DNA of 64,000 bases from Chloroflexi bacterium B3_Chlor. Its GTDB lineage: Bacteria > Chloroflexota > Anaerolineae > UBA7937 > B3-Chlor. Below, one piece after another: positions 13,457 through 20,910 of this stretch. The stretch's first letter is position 1. Every line of letters starts with the position of its first letter. The stretch covers positions 2,339 to 66,338 of the forward strand of contig NJBK01000011.1 in the NCBI GenBank assembly GCA_005223035.1, in the 5' to 3' direction. Under the pieces are notes generated by a model. The model had not been told where the DNA came from. It worked only from the letters and a program-made list of their open reading frames with translations, and ran no database searches. Position numbers and translations under genes: made by a program.

Positions 13457-15172
13457 GTGAAGATCAAGAGGCTGGTTGCTCGATCGGCGCTGGTCTGTTT
13501 GGGCATGCTGACTTGGGCTGCTTGTAGCACTCCTGTGCCCAGCCCCGCAGCCTTCCCACCGGCCGTTCAGTCTCCTCTGCCTTCGGACACGGTGTCGGGC
13601 GTGGTGCTCGACGATGACGGCCCGGTGGCTGGCGCTACCGTGCGCTTGCAAGCTACAGAAAACAGTACAAAGACCGCCGCTGACGGTACCTTCACCTTGG
13701 CGGGTTTGAGCGAAGGCATCGCCGTGACCATCAGCGCCTGGAAGCACACCTACTACTGCGCCAAAGTCCAGGGGGTGGTACCTCCCGCCAGTGACATCGC
13801 TCTGACTCTGCGTCACTATCAGACCAACGACAACCCCGACTACATGTGGATACCCCCGACTGGCGACGACTCGTGCGCTAGTTGCAAGCCAGGGGTGACC
13901 GAAATCTGGCTGGAGAACGCCCACGCCGGATCTGCCAACAACCCTCGCTTCCTGACCATGTACAATGGCACCGACATGGCTGGCAATCAGAGCCCGCCTA
14001 CTCGCCGCGGCTACAGCCGCGACTATGGCTCCTTTCCTTTGCGGCCGGACCCCGACCAACCGTACTACGGCCCTGGCTACAAGCTGGACTTTCCTGACAC
14101 GGCAGGCAACTGTGCGGCGTGCCATACGCCGGGGGCCGCTGTTGATGCCGCCTATGGCACCGACCCGACTGCGGTCGCCGGTGCGGATACCTTTGGCGTG
14201 CACTGCGACTTCTGCCACAAGGTGGCCGATGTCCACGTGAACCCGGATACTGGGATGCCCTTCCCGAACATGCCCGGCGTCCTGTCAATGTATGTCCGAC
14301 GGCCTTTTCCCGAAGATCCGGATCGCTACCAACTCTTCTTCGGCACGTTCGACGACGACAACGTGCCCGAGGAAGACACCTATCTCCCTCTGCTCAGGAC
14401 TAGCCAGTTCTGCGCGCCGTGCCACATTGGGGTGTTCTGGGACACTGTAATCTACAATTCGTTCGGTGAGTGGGTGGAAAGTCCCTACAGCGACCCCGAC
14501 ACCGGCCAGACCTGCCAGAACTGTCACATGCCCTCACCGGCTGTTCTGGACGGGGAGCCGATGACCAACGTGGCGCCGCACGCCGGCGGTATCGAGCGCG
14601 ACCCGCTGACCATCCACGGTCACACCCAGCCAGGCGCAATGGACGAGAAGTTGCTGCAAAACGCGGTCACCATGACCGCCACCGCCCAGCTTGAGGGCGA
14701 TACCGTTGTCGTGGAGGTGGAGATCACCAACGACCAGACCGGTCACCACGTCCCCACGGATAGCCCCCTGCGACACCTCATCCTGCTGGTACAGGCCACC
14801 GATGCCGGTGGCAACCAGTTGACGCAACTCGAAGGGCCGAGGGTGCCCGAGTGGGGCGGGACCGGCGATCCAAACGAAGGATACTACGCTGGGCTGCCCG
14901 GCAAAGCCTTCGCCAAGGTGCTGGAGGAGCTGTGGACTGAGATCTCGCCGTCAGCGGCATACTGGAACCCGACGCGCGTGCTGAGCGACAATCGCTTGGC
15001 CGCCTTGGCCACCGACACCAGCACCTACACCTTCGCCGCGCCGCGTGAGGGTGGTGCCATGGTGGAGGTCACACTTCTGTTCCGCCGAGCTTTCATCGAG
15101 TTGATGGATCAGAAGGGGTGGGATGTCCCGGACATCTTGATGGAGCAGCAGACGGTGCATCTGCGCCGCTAG
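13457..15172 (+). CDS. multiheme c-type cytochrome lipoprotein with carboxypeptidase-regulatory-like domain
   Basis: WAAC lipobox; CASCK, CAACH, CDFCH, CAPCH, CQNCH; GHHVPTDSPLRHLIL. Confidence 0.85.
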   Translation: MKIKRLVARSALVCLGMLTWAACSTPVPSPAAFPPAVQSPLPSDTVSGVVLDDDGPVAGATVRLQATENSTKTAADGTFTLAGLSEGIAVTISAWKHTYYCAKVQGVVPPASDIALTLRHYQTNDNPDYMWIPPTGDDSCASCKPGVTEIWLENAHAGSANNPRFLTMYNGTDMAGNQSPPTRRGYSRDYGSFPLRPDPDQPYYGPGYKLDFPDTAGNCAACHTPGAAVDAAYGTDPTAVAGADTFGVHCDFCHKVADVHVNPDTGMPFPNMPGVLSMYVRRPFPEDPDRYQLFFGTFDDDNVPEEDTYLPLLRTSQFCAPCHIGVFWDTVIYNSFGEWVESPYSDPDTGQTCQNCHMPSPAVLDGEPMTNVAPHAGGIERDPLTIHGHTQPGAMDEKLLQNAVTMTATAQLEGDTVVVEVEITNDQTGHHVPTDSPLRHLILLVQATDAGGNQLTQLEGPRVPEWGGTGDPNEGYYAGLPGKAFAKVLEELWTEISPSAAYWNPTRVLSDNRLAALATDTSTYTFAAPREGGAMVEVTLLFRRAFIELMDQKGWDVPDILMEQQTVHLRR

Positions 15173-15412
15173 GACTGGCTCGGACGAGAAGGTCCCTTCA
15201 TTGCCCTGAGAACCCGCGGGCCACTGTCAGAGGATCCTCGGGGCAGGGCCCATTCGATTCCCTAGTGGCGGCTCAGCTCAAGCCAGTTTGACGGTCCATG
15301 GATCGGCCCTGACCCACCTTGCACCCGCTGCGTACGGACACCAAGCCGTCGGTCATTTCGCCCTGAGGGGCTATGCTCCAGCTCTAGAATGCATGCCGAG
15401 GGCGGCTCGGCC

Positions 15413-15441
15413 TTGACACACGAGAAATCATCGGGTATAAT
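15413..15441 (+). promoter_or_regulatory. consensus sigma70 promoter of the recombinase
   Basis: Perfect TTGACA-17 bp-TATAAT. Confidence 0.8.
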
Positions 15442-15475
15442 TATTACGTATAAGGTGGCATTATCTGTCATAATT
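15439..15475. other. putative tyrosine-recombinase recombination/binding site (lox/dif-like)
   Basis: AATTATTACGTATAA-GGTGGCA-TTATCTGTCATAATT: 15-bp imperfect inverted arms (12/15) around a 7-bp spacer. Confidence 0.6.
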
Positions 15476-15514
15476 GGCCTCTCAATGCAAGGATAGTAGC
15501 GTCGAGGAAGCGGC

Positions 15515-16423
15515 ATGTCGACGAGTGAAACCGAGTTGCAGGACACTCTAGCGGCATATGAGAAGTACTTGGTGGACTCGGGCTTGTCGCAAGTGACTAT
15601 CACGGGCTATCTCGGTGATATCAAGCAGTTTGCCTCCTGGCTCGCCGGAGAGGGAAGGACCTCCCTGCTGGCAGGCACAAGTCAGGAGATTCGCCGCTAC
15701 TGCCTGCAGCTTGTGATAGCGAAAGCCCATACTCCCGCCACTGTAAATCGGCGCCTGCAAGCTATTCGGAAGTTCTTCAGATTTGCCGTGCACACGGGGT
15801 TGGTGGATGAAGATGCCTCCTTGGGGATCAAGTTGCTGCCACAGCCGCCGTCGGAAGGGCCACGAGGGCTTGATAGGTCGGAGGTAGAGCGCCTTCTCGA
15901 TGCTGTGCGACGAGGGGCTCCTCGTCTCATGAAGAGAGACTATGCGATAGTGCAGCTCATGCTCCAGACAGGGATCCGCGTGGGGGAGCTGACCAAGCTC
16001 AAGCTGTGTGATATCTCGCTGTTCGAGGACAAGCGTGTTCTGAGGGTCCGTGGGCAAGAGGCTTCTCAAGGTCGGGAGATCCCCCTTAACAGCTCGGCTC
16101 GCAAAGCCTTGGGCGCCTACTTGGACGAGCGCGTTGGGTCAACCAACGATCACCTCTTTCTCAGCAGGAAGGGGGAGCCCCTATCCGTGCGCTCAGTGCA
16201 GAGATTGGTCAATACCTATGCTCAGGCGGCAGGTTTGGAGGACGTGTCCACGTACACCTTGCGGCAGACTTACGGTCAGCAGATGCTGAGGGACACTGGT
16301 GACCTATCCCTGGTGGCTAGGCTCATGGGCCACAAACGGCTGGAGACAGCCATCAAGTACATTCTGCCGGGGCAGGAGGATTTGACGGAGATAGCCGAGA
16401 GGAGCTCCCTCAACGTCTACTAG
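15515..16423 (+). CDS. XerC/D-like tyrosine recombinase
   Basis: N-terminal TVNRRLQAIRKFF; TGIRVGEL, YTLRQTY (HxxR variant), LMGHKRLETAIKY. Confidence 0.9.
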   Translation: MSTSETELQDTLAAYEKYLVDSGLSQVTITGYLGDIKQFASWLAGEGRTSLLAGTSQEIRRYCLQLVIAKAHTPATVNRRLQAIRKFFRFAVHTGLVDEDASLGIKLLPQPPSEGPRGLDRSEVERLLDAVRRGAPRLMKRDYAIVQLMLQTGIRVGELTKLKLCDISLFEDKRVLRVRGQEASQGREIPLNSSARKALGAYLDERVGSTNDHLFLSRKGEPLSVRSVQRLVNTYAQAAGLEDVSTYTLRQTYGQQMLRDTGDLSLVARLMGHKRLETAIKYILPGQEDLTEIAERSSLNVY

Positions 16424-16552
16424 CTTTGACGGGGGACCACAAGTACCGACCCTGGTTCATTGGTGTTGTAAGCCCACCCTTGAGCCTGGAGGCCATTGCT
16501 GACTCGGCTACCCCGCCTGGTAGGCGCTGACGGCGGAGAGGACGCCGAGTAT
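16316..16552 (+). repeat. duplicated unit, copy 1 (recombinase 3' end + structured element)
   Basis: Colinear with 17540-17773; shared GGCAGGAGGATTTGAC, CAAGTAC and GACTCGGCTACCCCGCC. Confidence 0.8.
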
Positions 16553-16555
16553 TTG
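16401..16555 (+). ncRNA. candidate structured RNA, copy 1
   Basis: Hairpin TCCCTCAA..TTGACGGGGGA followed by helix ACTCGGC...GCCGAGT; same architecture as copy 2. Confidence 0.5.
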
Positions 16556-16962
16556 CATTATTTCTAGAGATGTTTATGGTAGGGGCAGCTGTGGCGGACC
16601 CTGGGGCAGAGAGCTGCGACGCCAGGCATAGATCCGAGTTGTCTAAGAGGAACTGCAGAGGGTTTTCTTGGATGAGTGAGGGCAGTGACACCGTCAAGAG
16701 TGGTCGCGAGAGCGGATGGTCGGCATCCCGGAGCGTGCAGCCTTGTGACGAGGGGAATACGGCGATCACTACAGGCAAGGACGGAGAGGACGACCGGGTG
16801 TCCACAGGCTTGCAGGACGGCGGTGGTCGAAAGGGACACGAAGACAATCCCGTGCGGTCGGAACTCAGATCTTGCAGCGTAGGTAGTGGGAGTGTCAGGG
16901 AGGTGGAGGATCCTCGCCGAGCGATTCGATAGTGAGGTCATTGACTAGAAAGGCAAGGAAAG

Positions 16963-17478
16963 ATGACACAACTCAAGATTGGCGATAAGGTCTTGCACCC
17001 TGTGTACGGGGCGGGTACGTTGATCTCCATCGAAAACCGAGGGACAGATGGCACGACCGCGAAATACTATGTCATAGAATTGGTGAAGGGGAAGGGGCGT
17101 CTCTTGACTCCAGTGGAGAAATCAGAGGAATTGGGATTGCGAAAGCCCGTCGAAAAGCGGGGTCGTCGCGAGTTGTCGCAGGTTTTCTCAGGGCGTCCCA
17201 GAAGGCTGGCCGAGGACTATCGAAAGAGACGGGGCATCATCGACCAGCGGTTGAGGGAAGGCAGCTATGTGGAGGTTGGTCGGGTGGTTCGGGACCTGTC
17301 ATGGGTCGAGAGGCAAGGTCGAGCCACCACAGGGGATCGTCGGTTGCTCCAGAGAGCGAAGGAGTCGCTGGCAAAGGAACTGGCCGCTTCCGATGCAATA
17401 TCGGAGGAAGAGGCTATGGAGCGGATAGAGGCGGCGCTAGCAGGAAGGCTGTCGGGCAAAGGGGACAAGGGAGGGTGA
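16963..17478 (+). CDS. carD: CarD-family transcriptional regulator
   Basis: IGDKVLHPVYGAG, YYVIEL, LGLR, VGRVVRDL, AKELA. Confidence 0.9.
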   Translation: MTQLKIGDKVLHPVYGAGTLISIENRGTDGTTAKYYVIELVKGKGRLLTPVEKSEELGLRKPVEKRGRRELSQVFSGRPRRLAEDYRKRRGIIDQRLREGSYVEVGRVVRDLSWVERQGRATTGDRRLLQRAKESLAKELAASDAISEEEAMERIEAALAGRLSGKGDKGG

Positions 17479-17539
17479 GCGAGGCCCACGGACCATTCGT
17501 TTGTCAGTGAGGTTGTTGCCGTGGGCGCCGTGCAAGGAG

Positions 17540-17645
17540 GCGCGGCTAATGGGCCAGAAAAGGCCATAGATGTCCACCACGCGTATCGAGCCAAGGCAGG
17601 AGGATTTGACAGGGGCGGGTGAGAAGGGTTCCCTCAGTCTGCACC
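17540..17645 (+). pseudogene. decayed remnant of a tyrosine recombinase C-terminus
   Basis: Translates ARLMGQKRP*MSTTRIEPRQEDLTGAGEKGSLSLH, colinear with the intact ARLMGHKRLETAIKYILPGQEDLTEIAERSSLNVY. Confidence 0.75.
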
Positions 17646-17778
17646 GGGTTGAAAGGGAACCGCAAGTACAGGTTGTGCACCCATCGACAGTGAACATGGT
17701 TTGACGCTGAGGTGTGTTGTCGACTCGGCTACCCCGCCCGGCAAGACCGCGAGGTGGAAGATGGGCCGAGTCTTTCTG
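17626..17778 (+). ncRNA. candidate structured RNA, copy 2 (rpsU leader)
   Basis: Hairpin GGTTCCCT...AGGGAACC, CAAGTAC, helix GACTCGGC...GCCGAGTC, T-rich tail. Confidence 0.5.
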
Positions 17779-17842
17779 TTGTTGAGACGGAGGTTTACGC
17801 AAAGATGAGATGTCACAAAGACAGGAGGATTGGTTTTTGTGA

Positions 17843-18031
17843 GTGACATTGAGACCAGGGGAGTCGCAGGAAGAGCTGCTGAGGCGTTGGCGCAAGGCGG
17901 TGACCAAGAGTGGCGTACTCAAGGCCGTTCGCAAGAGAAGGTGGTTCATATCCAAAAGCGAGCGGCGGCGTCTGGCAAAGGCCAGAGTTGTCCACAGGGC
18001 GAGAGGAAAGGCCGCCCGCAGACGGTGGTAG
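17843..18031 (+). CDS. rpsU: 30S ribosomal protein bS21
   Basis: GESQEELLRRWRKAVTKSGVLKAVRKRRWFISKSERRR; exact start uncertain (GTG). Confidence 0.85.
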   Translation: MTLRPGESQEELLRRWRKAVTKSGVLKAVRKRRWFISKSERRRLAKARVVHRARGKAARRRW

Positions 18032-18274
18032 ACCGAGAGGTCAGGGAGCAACTGACGTTGGGGAGGCTGGCAATTGAGCCTGGGTCCTTGACTACGGGGG
18101 GTTGAGAAGGCATCCGTGCGAAGAGCGGAGCCCGAGACTGGTTGGCCTAGCTCATGACCGAATGACCGTGGGGGGCCGGCGAGACGGGATCAGGGCGAAA
18201 CTGAGGAGTAGGAGAGGATCACGGTGGAATCAGTAGTTCTGGCAGCAGATATCCGTCACTGGATGTAGAATGGG

Positions 18275-19492
18275 ATGGTGATGCCTGGGAAACTGGTCCA
18301 GATTGAAGACTACGAACAGTTCGTCGGAGCGGAAACTGTCGAACGGGTAAGGGAGAAGGCGAAGCCGCTCAAGGAGCTTCACGTGGCTCACGTGAATTCC
18401 ACCTACTACGGTGGGGGCGTGGCTGAGCTGTTGTCATCGTTGACGCTGTTGATGAACGGTCTGGGGATCACGACGGAATGGCGCGTGATTCAGGGGGCTC
18501 CCGACTTCTTCAGTGTGACCAAGAAGATGCACAATGCTCTGCAGGGTGGGCGGATCAACTTGAGCGAGCTGAAGCAGGAGATCTACGAGGGAGTCGTGTG
18601 GGAGAACTCGGTGAGGAATCATCTGGATCACGACAGGGTGATCATCCATGATCCTCAACCTCTTCCGATGATCAGTCACTATCAGAAGAAGGGGCCTTGG
18701 ATATGGCGTTGCCATGTGGACTTAACCGAGCCGAACAGAGAGCTCTGGGAATATCTCACTCCCTTCGTCGAGAAGTATGATGCGGTGATTCTCACCCTCG
18801 AGGAATACAGGCAGGAACTTGTCACGCCGCAAGTGTTCTTCATGCCCGCCATCGATCCGTTCTCCATCAAGAACAGGCACCTGAGCGAGGAGGAGAGACA
18901 AGCACGCCTGGACTACTACGACATACCAACGGATCTCCCCTTGGTGGTGCAGATTTCCCGCTTTGACCGCTGGAAGGATCCGGAAGGCGTTATCGAGGCG
19001 TTCAAACTGGCCAGAGGAGAGGTTGACGCCACGCTGGTCCTGCTAGGGAACATTGCGACAGACGATCCAGAGGGCGAGGAAGTGTATCAATCGCTGCTGG
19101 GCTGTCAGGACGAACGGATCATCATCCTGGCCCGACAGGATACGGCGCTGGTGAACGCCTTGCAGAGCCGAGCCGCCGTAGTCCTACAGAAGTCTATTCG
19201 GGAGGGCTTCGGACTTACCGTCACAGAGGCGATGTGGAAAGGCACGCCGGTCATCGGCGGGAATGTGGGAGGAATCCGATACCAGATCGAGGACGGAGTG
19301 AACGGGTTCCTTGTATCGTCCGTGGAAGAAGCCGCCCAGCGCATGGTTCAGTTGATAGCGGATGAGGAGCTGCGAGAACGGATCGGGCAGAGGGCGAAGG
19401 AGACGGTGAGGGAGCGATTCCTAATGATTCGCCTGCTTGAGCAATACGTGGATTTGCTCGACTCTTTTGAGACGATCTATAGGCTGGCATAG
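18275..19492 (+). CDS. treT: TreT-like trehalose glycosyltransferring synthase (GT4)
   Basis: VNSTYYGGGVAELL, KKMHNALQG, IHDPQP, WRCHVD, SRFDRWKDP, REGFGLTVTEAMWK. Confidence 0.85.
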   Translation: MVMPGKLVQIEDYEQFVGAETVERVREKAKPLKELHVAHVNSTYYGGGVAELLSSLTLLMNGLGITTEWRVIQGAPDFFSVTKKMHNALQGGRINLSELKQEIYEGVVWENSVRNHLDHDRVIIHDPQPLPMISHYQKKGPWIWRCHVDLTEPNRELWEYLTPFVEKYDAVILTLEEYRQELVTPQVFFMPAIDPFSIKNRHLSEEERQARLDYYDIPTDLPLVVQISRFDRWKDPEGVIEAFKLARGEVDATLVLLGNIATDDPEGEEVYQSLLGCQDERIIILARQDTALVNALQSRAAVVLQKSIREGFGLTVTEAMWKGTPVIGGNVGGIRYQIEDGVNGFLVSSVEEAAQRMVQLIADEELRERIGQRAKETVRERFLMIRLLEQYVDLLDSFETIYRLA

Positions 19493-19686
19493 GCGAGGTG
19501 GCTTCGTTTGGCCCGTGCCTGTTTGTGCCATGTCCAGGGGCTGGGAGACCGTAGAGGGTGGTGCCAAGCGCAAAGGGATGATGTCGTCCGAGGGCGCCCG
19601 CGGAGAACGTGGCCGGGATCATGAGACAAAGCTGTAGTGCTATTCTACCGGACCGGTAGCCACCAGTTGAGAAGGAGGTACAGGAC

Positions 19687-19905
19687 TTGAGACGATCCAG
19701 TAAAGGAGGGCCGATAACGGCCGCGCAATTGGGGCTCAGAGACCTGCCCAAAGGCTGGAGAGGTGCCCCATTGGATCAGGTTGTGGCCAGTGCCAAGAGA
19801 ATCGTCGAACAAAGCGAGGCAACGGGTGGTTCCGGGGATCCCCGCTTGAGGGCGGCTCTGAAGGTGCTGAAGTTTGAGGAGCGCTTGAAGGCACGAGAGA
19901 AGTAG
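19687..19905 (+). CDS. small hypothetical protein
   Basis: Strong AAGGAGGT RBS before TTG; helical, charged sequence. Confidence 0.5.
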   Translation: MRRSSKGGPITAAQLGLRDLPKGWRGAPLDQVVASAKRIVEQSEATGGSGDPRLRAALKVLKFEERLKAREK

Positions 19906-19983
19906 GACGGAACCAGGCCGATCCGCTCTACTTCGGGGACCGGGATACTGAGGCCGCGGCTGTTCACCCGGCGACGATTCCAT

Positions 19984-20910
19984 TCATTCCCCGATCGAGA
20001 TAAGGGTCAGCAGTCCCACGTGGTCTGATGCCCACTGCCAACCGTCTGTGCTGTGGAACGGCTGATCTAGCACTCGTTCGCAACTCGCCAGATCAGCGCG
20101 ATGCTGTTTCCCCGGAAAGAGGAAAACGTAGTCGATGCGCTCGTCTGGCGGGTCGGGGAAGGCTGAGGATAGGTCGTCGATGCAGCAAGTGAAACCTGGG
20201 TCCTCGGGGTGCATGGCTCGGTAGGTGTCCACCGCCTGGGTGCTGATGGCCTTGATTCCGGGTGAATCCTCCATAGCGTTGAAGTCACCTGCAACGATGG
20301 CTGGTTCCTCACCTCTCCTGGCCACGAAAGCCATCAGCGACTTTGCCTGACTGCGATTGATTAGCGGGTCGCCGGTGGTGAGGTGGGTGACGAAGACGAG
20401 CAGTTCTCCCCAAGGGGTGATCGCCGTCGCCGCCAGCACCACCCGGTGTTCGAAAAACCCGGCTCGGGGCTGCAGTTCTTCGAAGGTCACGTCGCGGAGC
20501 GGATACCGGCTGAGGATAGCCTCACCCTCTTCGAAGAGGATGGTCCAGCGGTTGCCGTTGGCCCGGAAGTAGACGTGATTCAAGCCTGTTCGCGCTGCGA
20601 GATACTGGGCAGCGCTGCCGATATGTGGAGCCCAAGGCACCTCCTGGAGGCAGACAATGTCAGCATCCTGGCGGTGAACCTCCTCCGCGATCAGGTCCAA
20701 CCGCTTGCGTAGGCGGTCGAAGCGGGGAAAGCCGTGGAGGATGTTCAGTGAGATCACCCTGAGGGAGCCGTCACGCCGCTCGCCCGCCACGGCGCACCCC
20801 TCGGGACAGCCCTCCACCCGGTCCCCCACGCGACTCGCATTGAGCGCCCAGACGGTCAGTGCCGCGGCAACCAGCACTGGCCATCCGTAGCGGCGCATTC
20901 TACGACCCAC
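19984..20910 (-). CDS. endonuclease/exonuclease/phosphatase family protein, secreted or membrane-anchored
   Basis: SLNIL, LQEV, THL, GDFN, RIDYV, SDH motifs; N-terminal hydrophobic segment. Confidence 0.9.
   Translation of the reverse strand: MGRRMRRYGWPVLVAAALTVWALNASRVGDRVEGCPEGCAVAGERRDGSLRVISLNILHGFPRFDRLRKRLDLIAEEVHRQDADIVCLQEVPWAPHIGSAAQYLAARTGLNHVYFRANGNRWTILFEEGEAILSRYPLRDVTFEELQPRAGFFEHRVVLAATAITPWGELLVFVTHLTTGDPLINRSQAKSLMAFVARRGEEPAIVAGDFNAMEDSPGIKAISTQAVDTYRAMHPEDPGFTCCIDDLSSAFPDPPDERIDYVFLFPGKQHRADLASCERVLDQPFHSTDGWQWASDHVGLLTLISIGE

Follow-up and report, generated by a model that had tools for sequence, protein, structure and literature searches.

Upstream of rpsU, the gene for ribosomal protein bS21, certain Anaerolineae carry an element of ~190 nt that we read, with a probability of roughly 0.6, as a cis-acting leader RNA serving as a transcription attenuator of this gene. 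In the window, i.e. the 64,000-nt stretch of the Chloroflexi bacterium B3_Chlor genome analyzed here, the element is present in two copies, the first of which overlaps the 3' end of a gene for a Xer-like tyrosine recombinase, ~410 nt upstream of carD, and the second of which lies before rpsU (Table 1). Each unit closes with a long hairpin that has a conserved base and is followed by a U-rich tail. According to the proposed mechanism, this hairpin together with its tail would act as an intrinsic terminator, the hairpin ending 70-72 nt ahead of the rpsU start codon. Block A, a conserved stretch of 10 nt close to the 5' end of the leader, would be able to pair instead with the 5' arm of the hairpin, thereby enclosing two further helices, P1 and P3, and excluding the terminator, and the winning pairing would decide the entry of RNA polymerase into rpsU.

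Table 1. Features of the recombinase-carD-rpsU region, in positions of the window
Feature	Position	Strand	Basis or remark
Promoter, consensus sigma-70-type	15413..15441	+	TTGACA, 17 nt, TATAAT; upstream of the recombinase gene
AT-rich element (TTACGTATAAGG..ATTATCYGCC)	15442..15480	+	directly after the -10 box; conserved in the 24-locus alignment
Xer-like tyrosine recombinase gene, 302 aa	15515..16423	+	Pfam PF00589 (Phage_integrase) and PF02899 (N-terminal SAM-like)
Leader copy 1 ('R' copy)	16316..16563	+	alignment to copy 2; model match 16373-16562
Block A of copy 1 (GAUAGCCGAG)	16390..16399	+	in the recombinase reading frame; candidate antiterminator strand
Terminator-like hairpin, copy 1 (GACUCGGC...GCCGAGU)	16501..16550	+	sequence, pattern match, fold
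'orfX'	16570..16932	+	open frame; ahead of carD
carD	16963..17478	+	Pfam CarD_TRCF_RID and CarD_C
Leader copy 2 ('U' copy)	17540..17784	+	upstream of rpsU; model match 17597-17783; alignments A5, A7
Block A of copy 2 (GGCGGGUGAG)	17614..17623	+	columns 18-27 of alignment A7; candidate antiterminator strand
Hairpin P1 of copy 2 (GGUUCCCU ... AGGGAACC)	17627..17661	+	helix 1 of the model
Terminator-like hairpin, copy 2 (GACUCGGCU...GGCCGAGUC)	17722..17772	+	fold; outer stem
rpsU (bS21)	17843..18031	+	Pfam Ribosomal_S21 and NCBIfam S21

An earlier note on this region, drawn from its sequence, had described a ~235-bp colinear repeat whose coding part is decayed in the second copy, and both observations hold. 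Over the span given there (16316-16552 and 17540-17773) the copies are colinear, with 61% identity (143 of 233 aligned positions). The window contains exactly two occurrences of the 17-mer GACTCGGCTACCCCGCC, where 0.01 would be expected, and the sole other match to copy 1 within the 2.8-Mb assembly is copy 2 (E 1.9e-4). Our covariance model of the element, R1, which was trained on rpsU-upstream copies only, scores copy 2 at 172.5 bits and copy 1, which was outside the training set, at 91.4 bits (E about 1e-20). Copy 1 covers the last ~35 codons of the recombinase and extends to a U-rich tail, AUUUGCAUUAUUU, at 16551-16563, directly 3' of its hairpin. In copy 2 the segment 17540-17596 resembles recombinase codons 268-286, and its 5' part matches residues 268-302 at 48.6% identity (tblastn, E 7e-4); this coding remnant has an in-frame TAG, a His to Gln change and CGT in place of the catalytic Tyr codon. 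The copy 2 hairpin is directly followed by UUUCUGUUGUUG at 17773-17784, and rpsU starts 72 nt past the end of the hairpin pattern match (17771).

The position of the element relative to rpsU is fixed. Among the 26 rpsU genes present in 40 recombinase-bearing stretches, a pattern scan places the hairpin end 70-72 nt before the start codon in 24; of the remaining two, one has a copy recovered by the model only and the other a shortened version recognized by eye. Genomes with two rpsU paralogs have a copy before each, and the spacer of 70 nt and the ribosome-binding region are conserved along with the element. At the 3' end of homologous recombinase genes, model R1 finds matches in 32 of the 34 loci searched (21-183 bits); the repeat is a conserved structured element of other genomes too and not a one-off local duplication. 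The best-conserved copies go with rpsU rather than with the recombinase: those on the rpsU side score 135-183 bits, whereas those on the recombinase side, and a third, partial copy found before treT in genera other than that of the window, are degenerate (21-70 bits). Because related sequences and several near-duplicate loci are included, all these counts overstate independence.

Both the element and the recombinase are present in 13 of the 16 genomes of the family that we term f1, and the remaining three yielded neither the element nor a close ortholog of the recombinase. Four genomes of a sister family, f3, have full-length matches before rpsU, which are weak (32-39 bits, with a per-genome E of 3e-7 to 2e-5) and were obtained with a model trained on f1 sequences only. 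Their layout is rpoD, tRNA-Asn, element, rpsU, (L35), carD and IF-1, and tblastn detected no recombinase in these loci. Across the class, 3 of 151 sampled genomes had a match, all of them in f1 or f3. Judging from these matches, the element is conserved in two families of one Anaerolineae order. Within f1 it appears to have been duplicated, with one copy overlapping the tail of the vertically inherited Xer-like gene, now before carD (copy 1 of the window), and the other before rpsU (copy 2), which is also where a terminator of carD would be expected.

This distribution bears on the idea that the element is an independent trans-acting small RNA, ~190-250 nt long and closed by a terminator of its own. 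Such an RNA would account for the terminator-like hairpin at the end, for nucleotide-level constraint that sets in ~105 nt before the recombinase stop codon and for the presence of 2-4 copies per genome. It would not account for the placement of the element directly before rpsU at a fixed distance, with spacer and ribosome-binding region conserved too. Furthermore, the + strand showed no promoter-like site from 15442 to 18400, and copies away from the rpsU locus were not found, the matches being confined to contigs of that locus in the 13 f1 genomes. We therefore regard a small RNA of this kind as very unlikely.

Support for a folded RNA comes from comparison of the rpsU-upstream copies. Across 20 distinct copies, which are the top matches of model R1, include the 17 training sequences and stand in an alignment fitted to the tested structure, 85.1% of the model cells are paired as against 32-53% when the partners are slid. 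In the same copies 25 cells are changed on both sides compared to 13.7 +/- 3.2 in shuffles, with none of 500 shuffles reaching 25, and 9 of 27 pairs show such changes. The earlier note had called for a covariation check, and three helices, P1, P3 and the terminator-like hairpin, indeed covary; this support is moderate because the sequences are related. In P1, 4 of 8 pairs are changed on both sides, and the outer stem of the terminator-like hairpin is 92.8% paired. The base of this hairpin is conserved over 8-9 bp (GACUCGGC/GCCGAGUC), and 7-10 of the 12 nt that follow it in rpsU-upstream copies are T. The terminator model has 74 G.U against 24 A.C pairs and the antiterminator 42 against 4, an excess of G.U that fits an RNA transcribed from the gene strand. 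Single-sequence folds of the two window copies are not more stable than shuffles (z +0.14 and +0.15), and a consensus terminator scan with a loop rule of 3-8 nt called neither hairpin. The U tracts are interrupted. A search against Rfam 15, likewise suggested by the note, gave no match at E up to 1 on either strand of 14000-20000. Among the sequencing runs listed as holding the stretch, none is an RNA run.

Of about 107 windows compared upstream, block A, which reads GGUAGCUGAG in most copies, is the best duplex partner of the 5' arm of the hairpin in all 20 copies. The predicted duplexes have energies of -12.9 to -20.1 kcal/mol, similar to those of the terminator arms; the duplex of block A with the 5' arm has -16.0 kcal/mol in copy 1 and -15.3 kcal/mol in copy 2 of the window. 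In the antiterminator pairing 95% of the cells are paired against 22-50% when slid. Its covariation is not above the shuffle control because the columns are nearly invariant, and it is complementarity and conservation that make block A a candidate antiterminator strand. Two of three f3 sequences likewise have the best partner for the 5' arm at the 5' end of the leader, shifted by ~10 nt, and the third shows a near tie.

One alternative is that the hairpins do no more than terminate transcription at gene ends, as ordinary intrinsic terminators, and that the repeats are diverging remnants of duplication, without any switching or sensing. Every copy does lie at the 3' end of a gene, be it the recombinase, carD or the small ORF, and both the degeneracy of the recombinase- and treT-side copies (in contrast to the rpsU-side ones) and the absence of antiterminator covariation beyond shuffles would be expected under it. 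Simple terminators, however, rarely show a conserved sequence at the hairpin base, and here this sequence is conserved even in f3. Moreover, block A, P1 and P3 are kept in a non-coding context across genera whose flanks cannot be aligned, the distance to the rpsU start is fixed and no upstream window pairs better with the 5' arm than block A in any of the 20 copies compared. Plain terminators thus appear unlikely to us, and we favor the attenuator.

The architecture is reminiscent of the attenuation leaders of ribosomal protein genes, such as the L10, L13, L19, L20 and L21 leaders of Bacillota in Rfam. Like these, the element lies directly before a ribosomal protein gene as a conserved, structured 5' leader, ends in a terminator-like hairpin and has a competing upstream pairing available; unlike these, it is present in multiple copies in one locus, with one copy lying over an upstream ORF, and lacks an Rfam match. 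Classical trp-type attenuators, too, rely on overlapping alternative helices, and the rpsU element shares with them the arrangement of three segments, the middle one of which (the 5' arm of the terminator) pairs with either neighbor. It differs from them in having no conserved leader peptide, block A being translated only in the copies at recombinase 3' ends. The phrases 'S21 leader' and 'rpsU leader' were not found in the literature searched by phrase, and a term search of the main text of Eckert and Weinberg 2020 (PMC7247131) gave no mention of S21 or rpsU. As the effector our leading guess, to which we assign somewhat less than half of the weight of the attenuator reading, is bS21 itself or 30S subunits lacking it, i.e. 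autogenous control. bS21 is reported to be autoregulated in Flavobacterium johnsoniae via its own mRNA leader, by a mechanism involving the rpsU Shine-Dalgarno sequence (PMC9976891), and in Francisella tularensis via the 5' UTR of rpsU2 (PMC13374519). These systems resemble ours in having a regulatory leader on the bS21 mRNA, and block A contains a GGAGGU core resembling a Shine-Dalgarno sequence. Both reportedly act on translation or on mRNA abundance and stability (PMC9976891, PMC13374519), whereas the architecture described here suggests termination versus antitermination.

Where copy 1 overlaps the recombinase gene, the last ~35 codons show reduced synonymous change, indicating constraint at the nucleotide level: third-codon-position identity among orthologs reaches 0.61-0.65 over residues 268-302, compared with 0.444 in the rest of the gene. 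The eight highest-ranking windows of 13 codons all start at residues 269-290 and so fall within residues 269-302. In one ortholog a stop codon falls inside block A, and the nucleotides of block A are kept nonetheless. Attenuation could be coupled to translation of the recombinase tail, with terminating ribosomes melting P1, shifting the choice between terminator and antiterminator and thereby setting the output of carD or rpsU. Besides the reduced synonymous change, such coupling would fit copy 1 of the window and eight stretches with a direct recombinase-element-rpsU arrangement, in all of which the recombinase frame runs through block A and the 5' strand of P1 and reaches its stop codon within the P1 loop. 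Yet the non-coding rpsU-side and f3 copies share the architecture without a conserved ORF over block A. Further, block A lies ~23-32 nt upstream of the stop codon, which by an estimate from known ribosome footprints places it outside the reach of a terminating ribosome. We consider such coupling quite unlikely. Recombinase-side copies in most other genera lack the U tract (1-6 T of 12), which makes control of carD by the element doubtful outside the genus of the window.

The 5' end of the locus matches the earlier description in part. The perfect promoter reported there is confirmed at all 12 hexamer positions, and TTGACA and a TAnAAT-like -10 box are kept across 24 aligned orthologous loci. 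The lox/dif-like site said to overlap it corresponds to an AT-rich element of ~35 nt, conserved in the same 24 loci, for which the inverted-repeat layout of 11-6-11 typical of Xer sites could not be demonstrated; an operator and the beginning of the 5' UTR are possible identities of this element. The calls of a Xer-like recombinase, CarD and bS21 are upheld by Pfam. The open frame 'orfX' has no Pfam or NCBIfam match, shows 0.125, 0.133 and 0.103 substitutions at the three codon positions and differs by a 1-nt indel between close relatives; it is probably not a gene but a genus-specific spacer of ~400 nt or a long 5' UTR before carD.

From the association with the recombinase, the earlier note had conceived of a recombinase-ncRNA or cassette-capture system, or else a recombinase-linked stress/cold-shock-type locus. 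The conserved, Rfam-unmatched structured element at recombinase 3' ends stands, while a functional system of this kind is not supported, a related element being present before rpsU in the recombinase-free loci of f3; no cold-shock gene occurs among the ORFs scanned. In such a system the hairpins would be sites or guide RNAs for the recombinase, as parts of an integron- or pdif-like cassette array (carD, treT-small ORF, rpsU) or of a recombinase-ncRNA unit. Several features are in line with this: hairpins with a conserved base and variable top between gene units, an order of units that differs between genera, a recombinase at one end behind a consensus promoter, and the co-occurrence of element and recombinase in f1. 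Imperfect hairpins of this form beside a tyrosine recombinase gene also recall the attC sites of integrons; the attC core motifs are absent from them. However, the element occurs without the recombinase in f3, and the cargo consists of the same three or four housekeeping units (carD, treT, small ORF, rpsU) in all layouts, and carD and rpsU each give a single match, with no second copy found, in the 85% complete assembly. Both the U-rich tails and the surplus of G.U relative to A.C pairs fit an RNA on the sense strand. None of 29 other Chloroflexota rpsU loci has a recombinase homolog within 1.5 kb. In line with the note, no transposase or phage families were found among the flanking ORFs scanned. 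The rearrangements it had proposed to look for did not appear either, as the contigs of four DNA runs, which span both copies and can miss rare variants, list no joint between the repeats. An integron with mobile cargo is thus not what we observe, and a role of the hairpins as sites or guide RNAs for the recombinase is extremely unlikely.

The protein itself is conserved and syntenic throughout f1, with orthologs 62-91% identical, and retains R155, R250, H273 and Y282. Aligned to XerA, XerD and a XerC-like chain, and with catalytic roles assigned as in XerD, it has Gln in place of the catalytic Lys and Tyr in place of the first His (His-I), i.e. an incomplete R-K-H-R-H-Y set; among 10 orthologs the β-hairpin Lys position is variable and Y247 invariant. 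It falls below the equivalog cut-offs for XerD (165.6 vs 329.6 bits) and XerC (164 vs 335) and far below those for integron integrases (TIGR02249, 48.4 vs 265; PRK15417, 17.9 vs 435), and the genome holds three other Xer-like matches. A bridge-RNA system of the IS110 type, defined by an IS110-family recombinase in a mobile element carrying an ncRNA, does not fit: the protein belongs to the tyrosine recombinase family, and the locus, which is syntenic and present once, showed no element ends. More speculatively, gene and leader might form one unit, in which the final ~35 codons of a vertically inherited, Lys-less recombinase-like protein double as the 5' half of the rpsU/carD attenuator. The output of bS21 and CarD would then be governed by translation of the tail or by the protein itself, bound to its own 3' RNA or hairpin, and the protein would be a domesticated nucleic-acid-binding regulator rather than a dimer resolvase; we give this very little credence. 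A possible parallel is the 401-aa 'RaiA' chain of Porphyromonas gingivalis, of which 34 residues are modeled on the ribosome (PDB 9i5v, PMC12123416), and whose residues 4-287 align to the recombinase-like protein (E 1.6e-19).

In our best reading the rpsU element is thus a new candidate cis-regulatory leader, an attenuator, that was duplicated ahead of carD. The case carries a lesson for genome scanning, in that a repeat adjacent to a recombinase may have nothing to do with recombination. The overlap with the recombinase gene end offers a clear example of dual coding and RNA constraint, and of the duplication of a leader within one locus. bS21 tunes Shine-Dalgarno recognition. Its dosage is regulated in Flavobacterium and Francisella, as work on these bacteria shows (PMC9976891, PMC13374519), and a switch at the level of transcription would represent a third mechanism of bS21 control. 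If the attenuator reading is correct, this would be the first structured attenuator-type leader found described for a bS21 gene, going by Rfam and our phrase and term searches of the literature. It would also add a new RNA motif to the poorly studied Anaerolineae and provide a compact terminator/antiterminator element with which to look for whatever senses bS21 or free 30S subunits.

The two colinear copies of the element recognized in the window are borne out by alignment, which shows identity at 143 of the 233 positions aligned, and the 17-mer GACTCGGCTACCCCGCC occurs exactly twice in the window as against 0.01 occurrences expected. In a BLAST comparison of copy 1, on the recombinase side, with its own genome (a 2.8-Mb, 85%-complete assembly from an uncultured Chloroflexota bacterium), the sole other match was copy 2, on the rpsU side; no second copy of rpsU or carD was found in this assembly either. 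Searches of this genome and of the family with the pattern GACTCGG-N25-45-CCGAGT gave counts close to those of a reversed-pattern control, except for the matches at this locus, indicating that the element is not a dispersed repeat. The features of the locus are collected in the table.

Features of the recombinase-carD-rpsU locus, in window positions
Feature	Position	Remarks
Sigma-70 consensus promoter	15413-15441	12/12 match
AT-rich element, ~35 nt (TTACGTATAAGG....ATTATCYGCC)	15442-15480	directly 3' of the -10 box; kept with the promoter in 24 orthologous loci
Tyrosine recombinase, 302 aa	15515-16423	Pfam: Phage_integrase and N-terminal SAM-like domain
Element, copy 1	16316-16563	recombinase side
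CarD	16963-17478	Pfam
Element, copy 2	17540-17784	rpsU side
bS21	17843-18031	Pfam

Orthologs of the recombinase (62-89% identity) were recovered from 12 of the 15 further species genomes in the window's family (f1) and from a single genome classed under a sister family, while a metagenome scan added 26 further stretches, yielding a set of 40 recombinase-bearing stretches that includes the window and several near-duplicates. Eight of these have the recombinase followed by the element and directly by rpsU. A second layout (26 stretches, some of them cut short) runs recombinase, degenerate element, carD, partial element, (treT), small ORF, element, rpsU, and the layout of the window's genus (four stretches) runs recombinase, element, orfX, carD, element, rpsU, treT, small ORF; the remaining two are uninformative. 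The small ORF (19687-19905 in the window, 72 aa) is 60-89% identical across the family, where it lies 3' of treT or carD and 5' of the rpsU leader, and has no match in Pfam or NCBIfam. Throughout the set the terminal hairpin of the element stands 70-72 nt 5' of the start codon in 24 of 26 rpsU genes, and one more of the 26 upstream copies was detected by the covariance model only. In locus L073 (1380-1545) the leader is shortened to ~100 nt, comprising only a segment resembling the 5' block A together with the U-tailed hairpin, and gives no match to the model. Four loci (L034 of genome G015, L053, L054 and L060) encode two rpsU paralogs, the paralogous products being 56-68% identical to the window protein, and each of the two genes is preceded by its own copy of the leader.

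A covariance model of the element (R1), built exclusively from 17 rpsU-upstream copies of f1, found matches in 13 of the 16 f1 genomes, all on contigs of this locus; in the three genomes with no match, one of them 92% complete, no close recombinase ortholog was found either. Across the order, weak but full-length matches (32-39 bits; E-values of 3e-7 to 2e-5 per genome) were obtained in four genomes of f3, a sister family in the same order. There the gene order is rpoD-like gene, tRNA-Asn, element, rpsU, carD, IF-1 (L096, L097 and L099; in L098, rpsU and carD are separated by L35), the names rpoD, L35 and IF-1 being taken from a reading of the ORFs instead of a family scan. The f3 leader begins ~75 nt after the tRNA, and tblastn found no recombinase in these loci. 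A class-wide sample gave R1 matches in 3 of 151 genomes, all of f1 or f3; absence elsewhere in the class thus means not found with an f1-derived model in the genomes searched. A wider linkage of recombinase and rpsU in Chloroflexota was rejected, as none of 29 other Chloroflexota rpsU loci has a recombinase or carD homolog within 1.5 kb. The element hence goes with rpsU rather than with the recombinase. In genome G024, filed under f3, an f1-like recombinase-element-rpsU contig and an f3-type locus are both present (contigs C165 and C34); its contamination is estimated at 6%, and the f1-like contig may be mis-binned or transferred. As a separate observation, this query found rpsU itself in only 44 of the 151 Chloroflexota genomes sampled, and in 31 of the 121 of high quality; many lineages of the phylum may lack bS21 or have a highly diverged form of it.

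An alignment of 20 distinct rpsU-upstream copies (A7), which are related and partly redundant sequences, reveals a common anatomy. It opens with the conserved 10-nt block A, GGAGGUAGCUGAGAGG in most copies and GGGGCGGGUGAGAAGG in the window, which is followed by a hairpin P1, a conserved RAGRURC block, a hairpin P3 and a long terminal hairpin, conserved at its base (GACUCGGC/GCCGAGUC) and variable, with covariation, at its top; of the 12 nt that come after it, 7-10 are T. Inspection of another alignment by eye hints at a further hairpin, P0, located ~25-45 nt 5' of block A. Taking P1, P3 and the terminal hairpin together, 85.1% of the cells are paired, as against 32-53% when the partners are slid, and two-sided changes are seen in 9 of 27 pairs, amounting to 25 cells versus 13.7 +/- 3.2 in shuffles, with none of 500 shuffles as high; these counts lean towards the R1 structure, because the 20 rows include its 17 source sequences in an alignment fitted to it. 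An independent MAFFT alignment of the 17 copies gives the same picture. Initial RNAalifold runs on mixed copies recovered little past the base of the hairpin, and the two window copies, when folded singly, did no better than shuffled sequences.

Block A is also complementary to the 5' arm of the terminal hairpin: 95% of the cells pair, compared with 22-50% with slid partners, and in all 20 copies it is the best duplex partner of the arm among ~107 upstream windows, with energies (-12.9 to -20.1 kcal/mol) comparable to those of the hairpin's own two arms. Covariation between block A and the arm does not rise above the shuffle control, since these columns hardly vary, and the alternative helix is accordingly put forward as a candidate antiterminator on the grounds of complementarity and conservation. 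In f3 the homologous block is no longer complementary. There the altered arm pairs instead with a segment ~10 nt 5' of the block, which is its best partner in two of three sequences and nearly ties for best in the third. The terminator model has 74 G.U against 24 A.C pairs, and the antiterminator 42 against 4, an excess of G.U that fits transcription from the gene strand.

The element overlaps the 3' end of the recombinase gene, the R1 match starting 47 nt before the stop codon in all orthologs. The expectation that the motif would accompany homologous recombinases in other genomes was confirmed, with an R1 match at 32 of the 34 recombinase loci searched (21-183 bits). Among 26 distinct orthologs, third codon positions have a pairwise identity of 0.61-0.65 over residues 268-302 as against 0.444 over residues 1-267, and the top eight 13-codon windows all start at 269-290, thus within residues 269-302. 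In L055 (1481-1535) the recombinase ortholog stops early, with a TAG inside block A, and the nucleotides of the block are kept. In copy 2 the part upstream of the common non-coding segment resembles the same residues 268-302 (48.6% identity, E-value 7e-4). This part had been described as decayed coding sequence, and its frame is indeed interrupted by a stop, with the His and Tyr codons gone. It matches the very stretch of the recombinase gene on which additional nucleotide constraint acts. We read it, from these sequence comparisons, as belonging to the RNA element, or at least to the duplicated unit, and not just as a dying pseudogene.

The earlier note had proposed a possibly undescribed recombinase-ncRNA system, with either a recombinase-linked stress/cold-shock-type locus or a recombinase that uses or captures RNA-leader cassettes; in a reading of this kind the element would serve as the site or the RNA of the adjacent recombinase, perhaps in an integron-like array. 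An integron-like model does explain one feature well, namely the shuffled order of units between genera, but recombination between paralogous leader copies could produce the same result. The element occurs without the recombinase in the f3 loci, the same few cargo genes are found everywhere, with rpsU and carD being the only copies found in the assembly, and outside this locus the genomes contain no copy of the element. In four DNA runs the contigs, which drop rare variants, bridge both copies in the window order across 15300-18400, and the sole joint listed (18208 to 18286, in one run) lies outside the repeats. Among RNA runs, none was listed as covering the stretch. We regard the recombination readings as very improbable. 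As to the protein itself, it scores about half of the XerC/XerD cut-offs and far under those of integron integrases. When it is aligned with XerA, with XerD and with a XerC-like structure, R155, R250, H273 and Y282 are kept, the first-His position is an invariant Tyr and the beta-hairpin Lys position is variable (Gln in the window), the catalytic roles being those of XerD. This Xer-like protein may, to judge from these residues, be catalytically atypical or inactive. In Bacteroidota rpsU presumably adjoins a Xer-like gene and hpf; a literature search for such a cluster gave nothing relevant, and control genomes show presence only. In PDB 9i5v, chain 14 (Porphyromonas gingivalis, 401 aa, deposited as RaiA) has 34 residues modelled on the ribosome, and its residues 4-287 form a Xer-like domain that aligns to the window protein (15515-16420) with an E-value of 1.6e-19.

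The perfect promoter reported ahead of the recombinase stands. Of the lox/dif-like site said to overlap it, a conserved AT-rich element remains, for which a likeness to Xer sites could not be demonstrated; possibly it is an operator, or else part of the 5' UTR of the recombinase operon. No promoter was called by the scan, and none was convincing by eye, between the terminator and rpsU or within the 3' end of the recombinase gene. The open frame orfX (16570-16932, 120 codons) was rejected as a gene: substitutions by codon position are 0.125/0.133/0.103, hence not raised at the third, and close relatives differ by a 1-nt indel. Probably it belongs to a non-coding spacer of ~400 nt ahead of carD, conserved within and specific to this genus. 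Likewise rejected was a conserved upstream ORF before rpsU (ATGAGATG...), which in the alignment, as seen by eye, ends after two codons in genus g2. Copy 1 has the full architecture with its U-rich tail (8 T of 12) and lies ~410 nt upstream of carD. In most other genera the recombinase-side copy has lost this tail (1-6 T of 12), making control of carD by it uncertain. Copy 2 adjoins the 3' end of carD, and would serve as the rpsU leader at the position expected for a carD terminator.

The predicted layout of the leader is that of a classical attenuator, and it would most likely work by attenuation. RNA started at the recombinase promoter, and perhaps also at undetected ones, would enter the leader; pairing of block A with the 5' arm would block the terminator and let the polymerase reach rpsU, and failing this pairing the hairpin and U tract would halt it 70-72 nt before the gene. 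As effector we favour bS21, or 30S subunits lacking it, since the best-kept copies are always 5' of rpsU and leaders of ribosomal-protein genes usually act autogenously. A third reason is the control of its own mRNA reported for bS21 in two other phyla (PMC9976891; PMC13374519). Block A holds a GGAGGU core which, speculatively, could interact with the anti-Shine-Dalgarno sequence.

Scanning 14000-20000 by E-value against Rfam 15, a check proposed in the earlier note, returned no match. The phrases 'S21 leader' and 'rpsU leader' were not found in the literature searched, and a 2020 survey of ribosomal leader candidates (PMC7247131) names, in its main text, neither S21 nor rpsU nor Chloroflexi. 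The element, which is new to Rfam 15, is thus a candidate bS21 leader that is narrowly distributed, is duplicated locally and, unusually, overlaps an upstream ORF.
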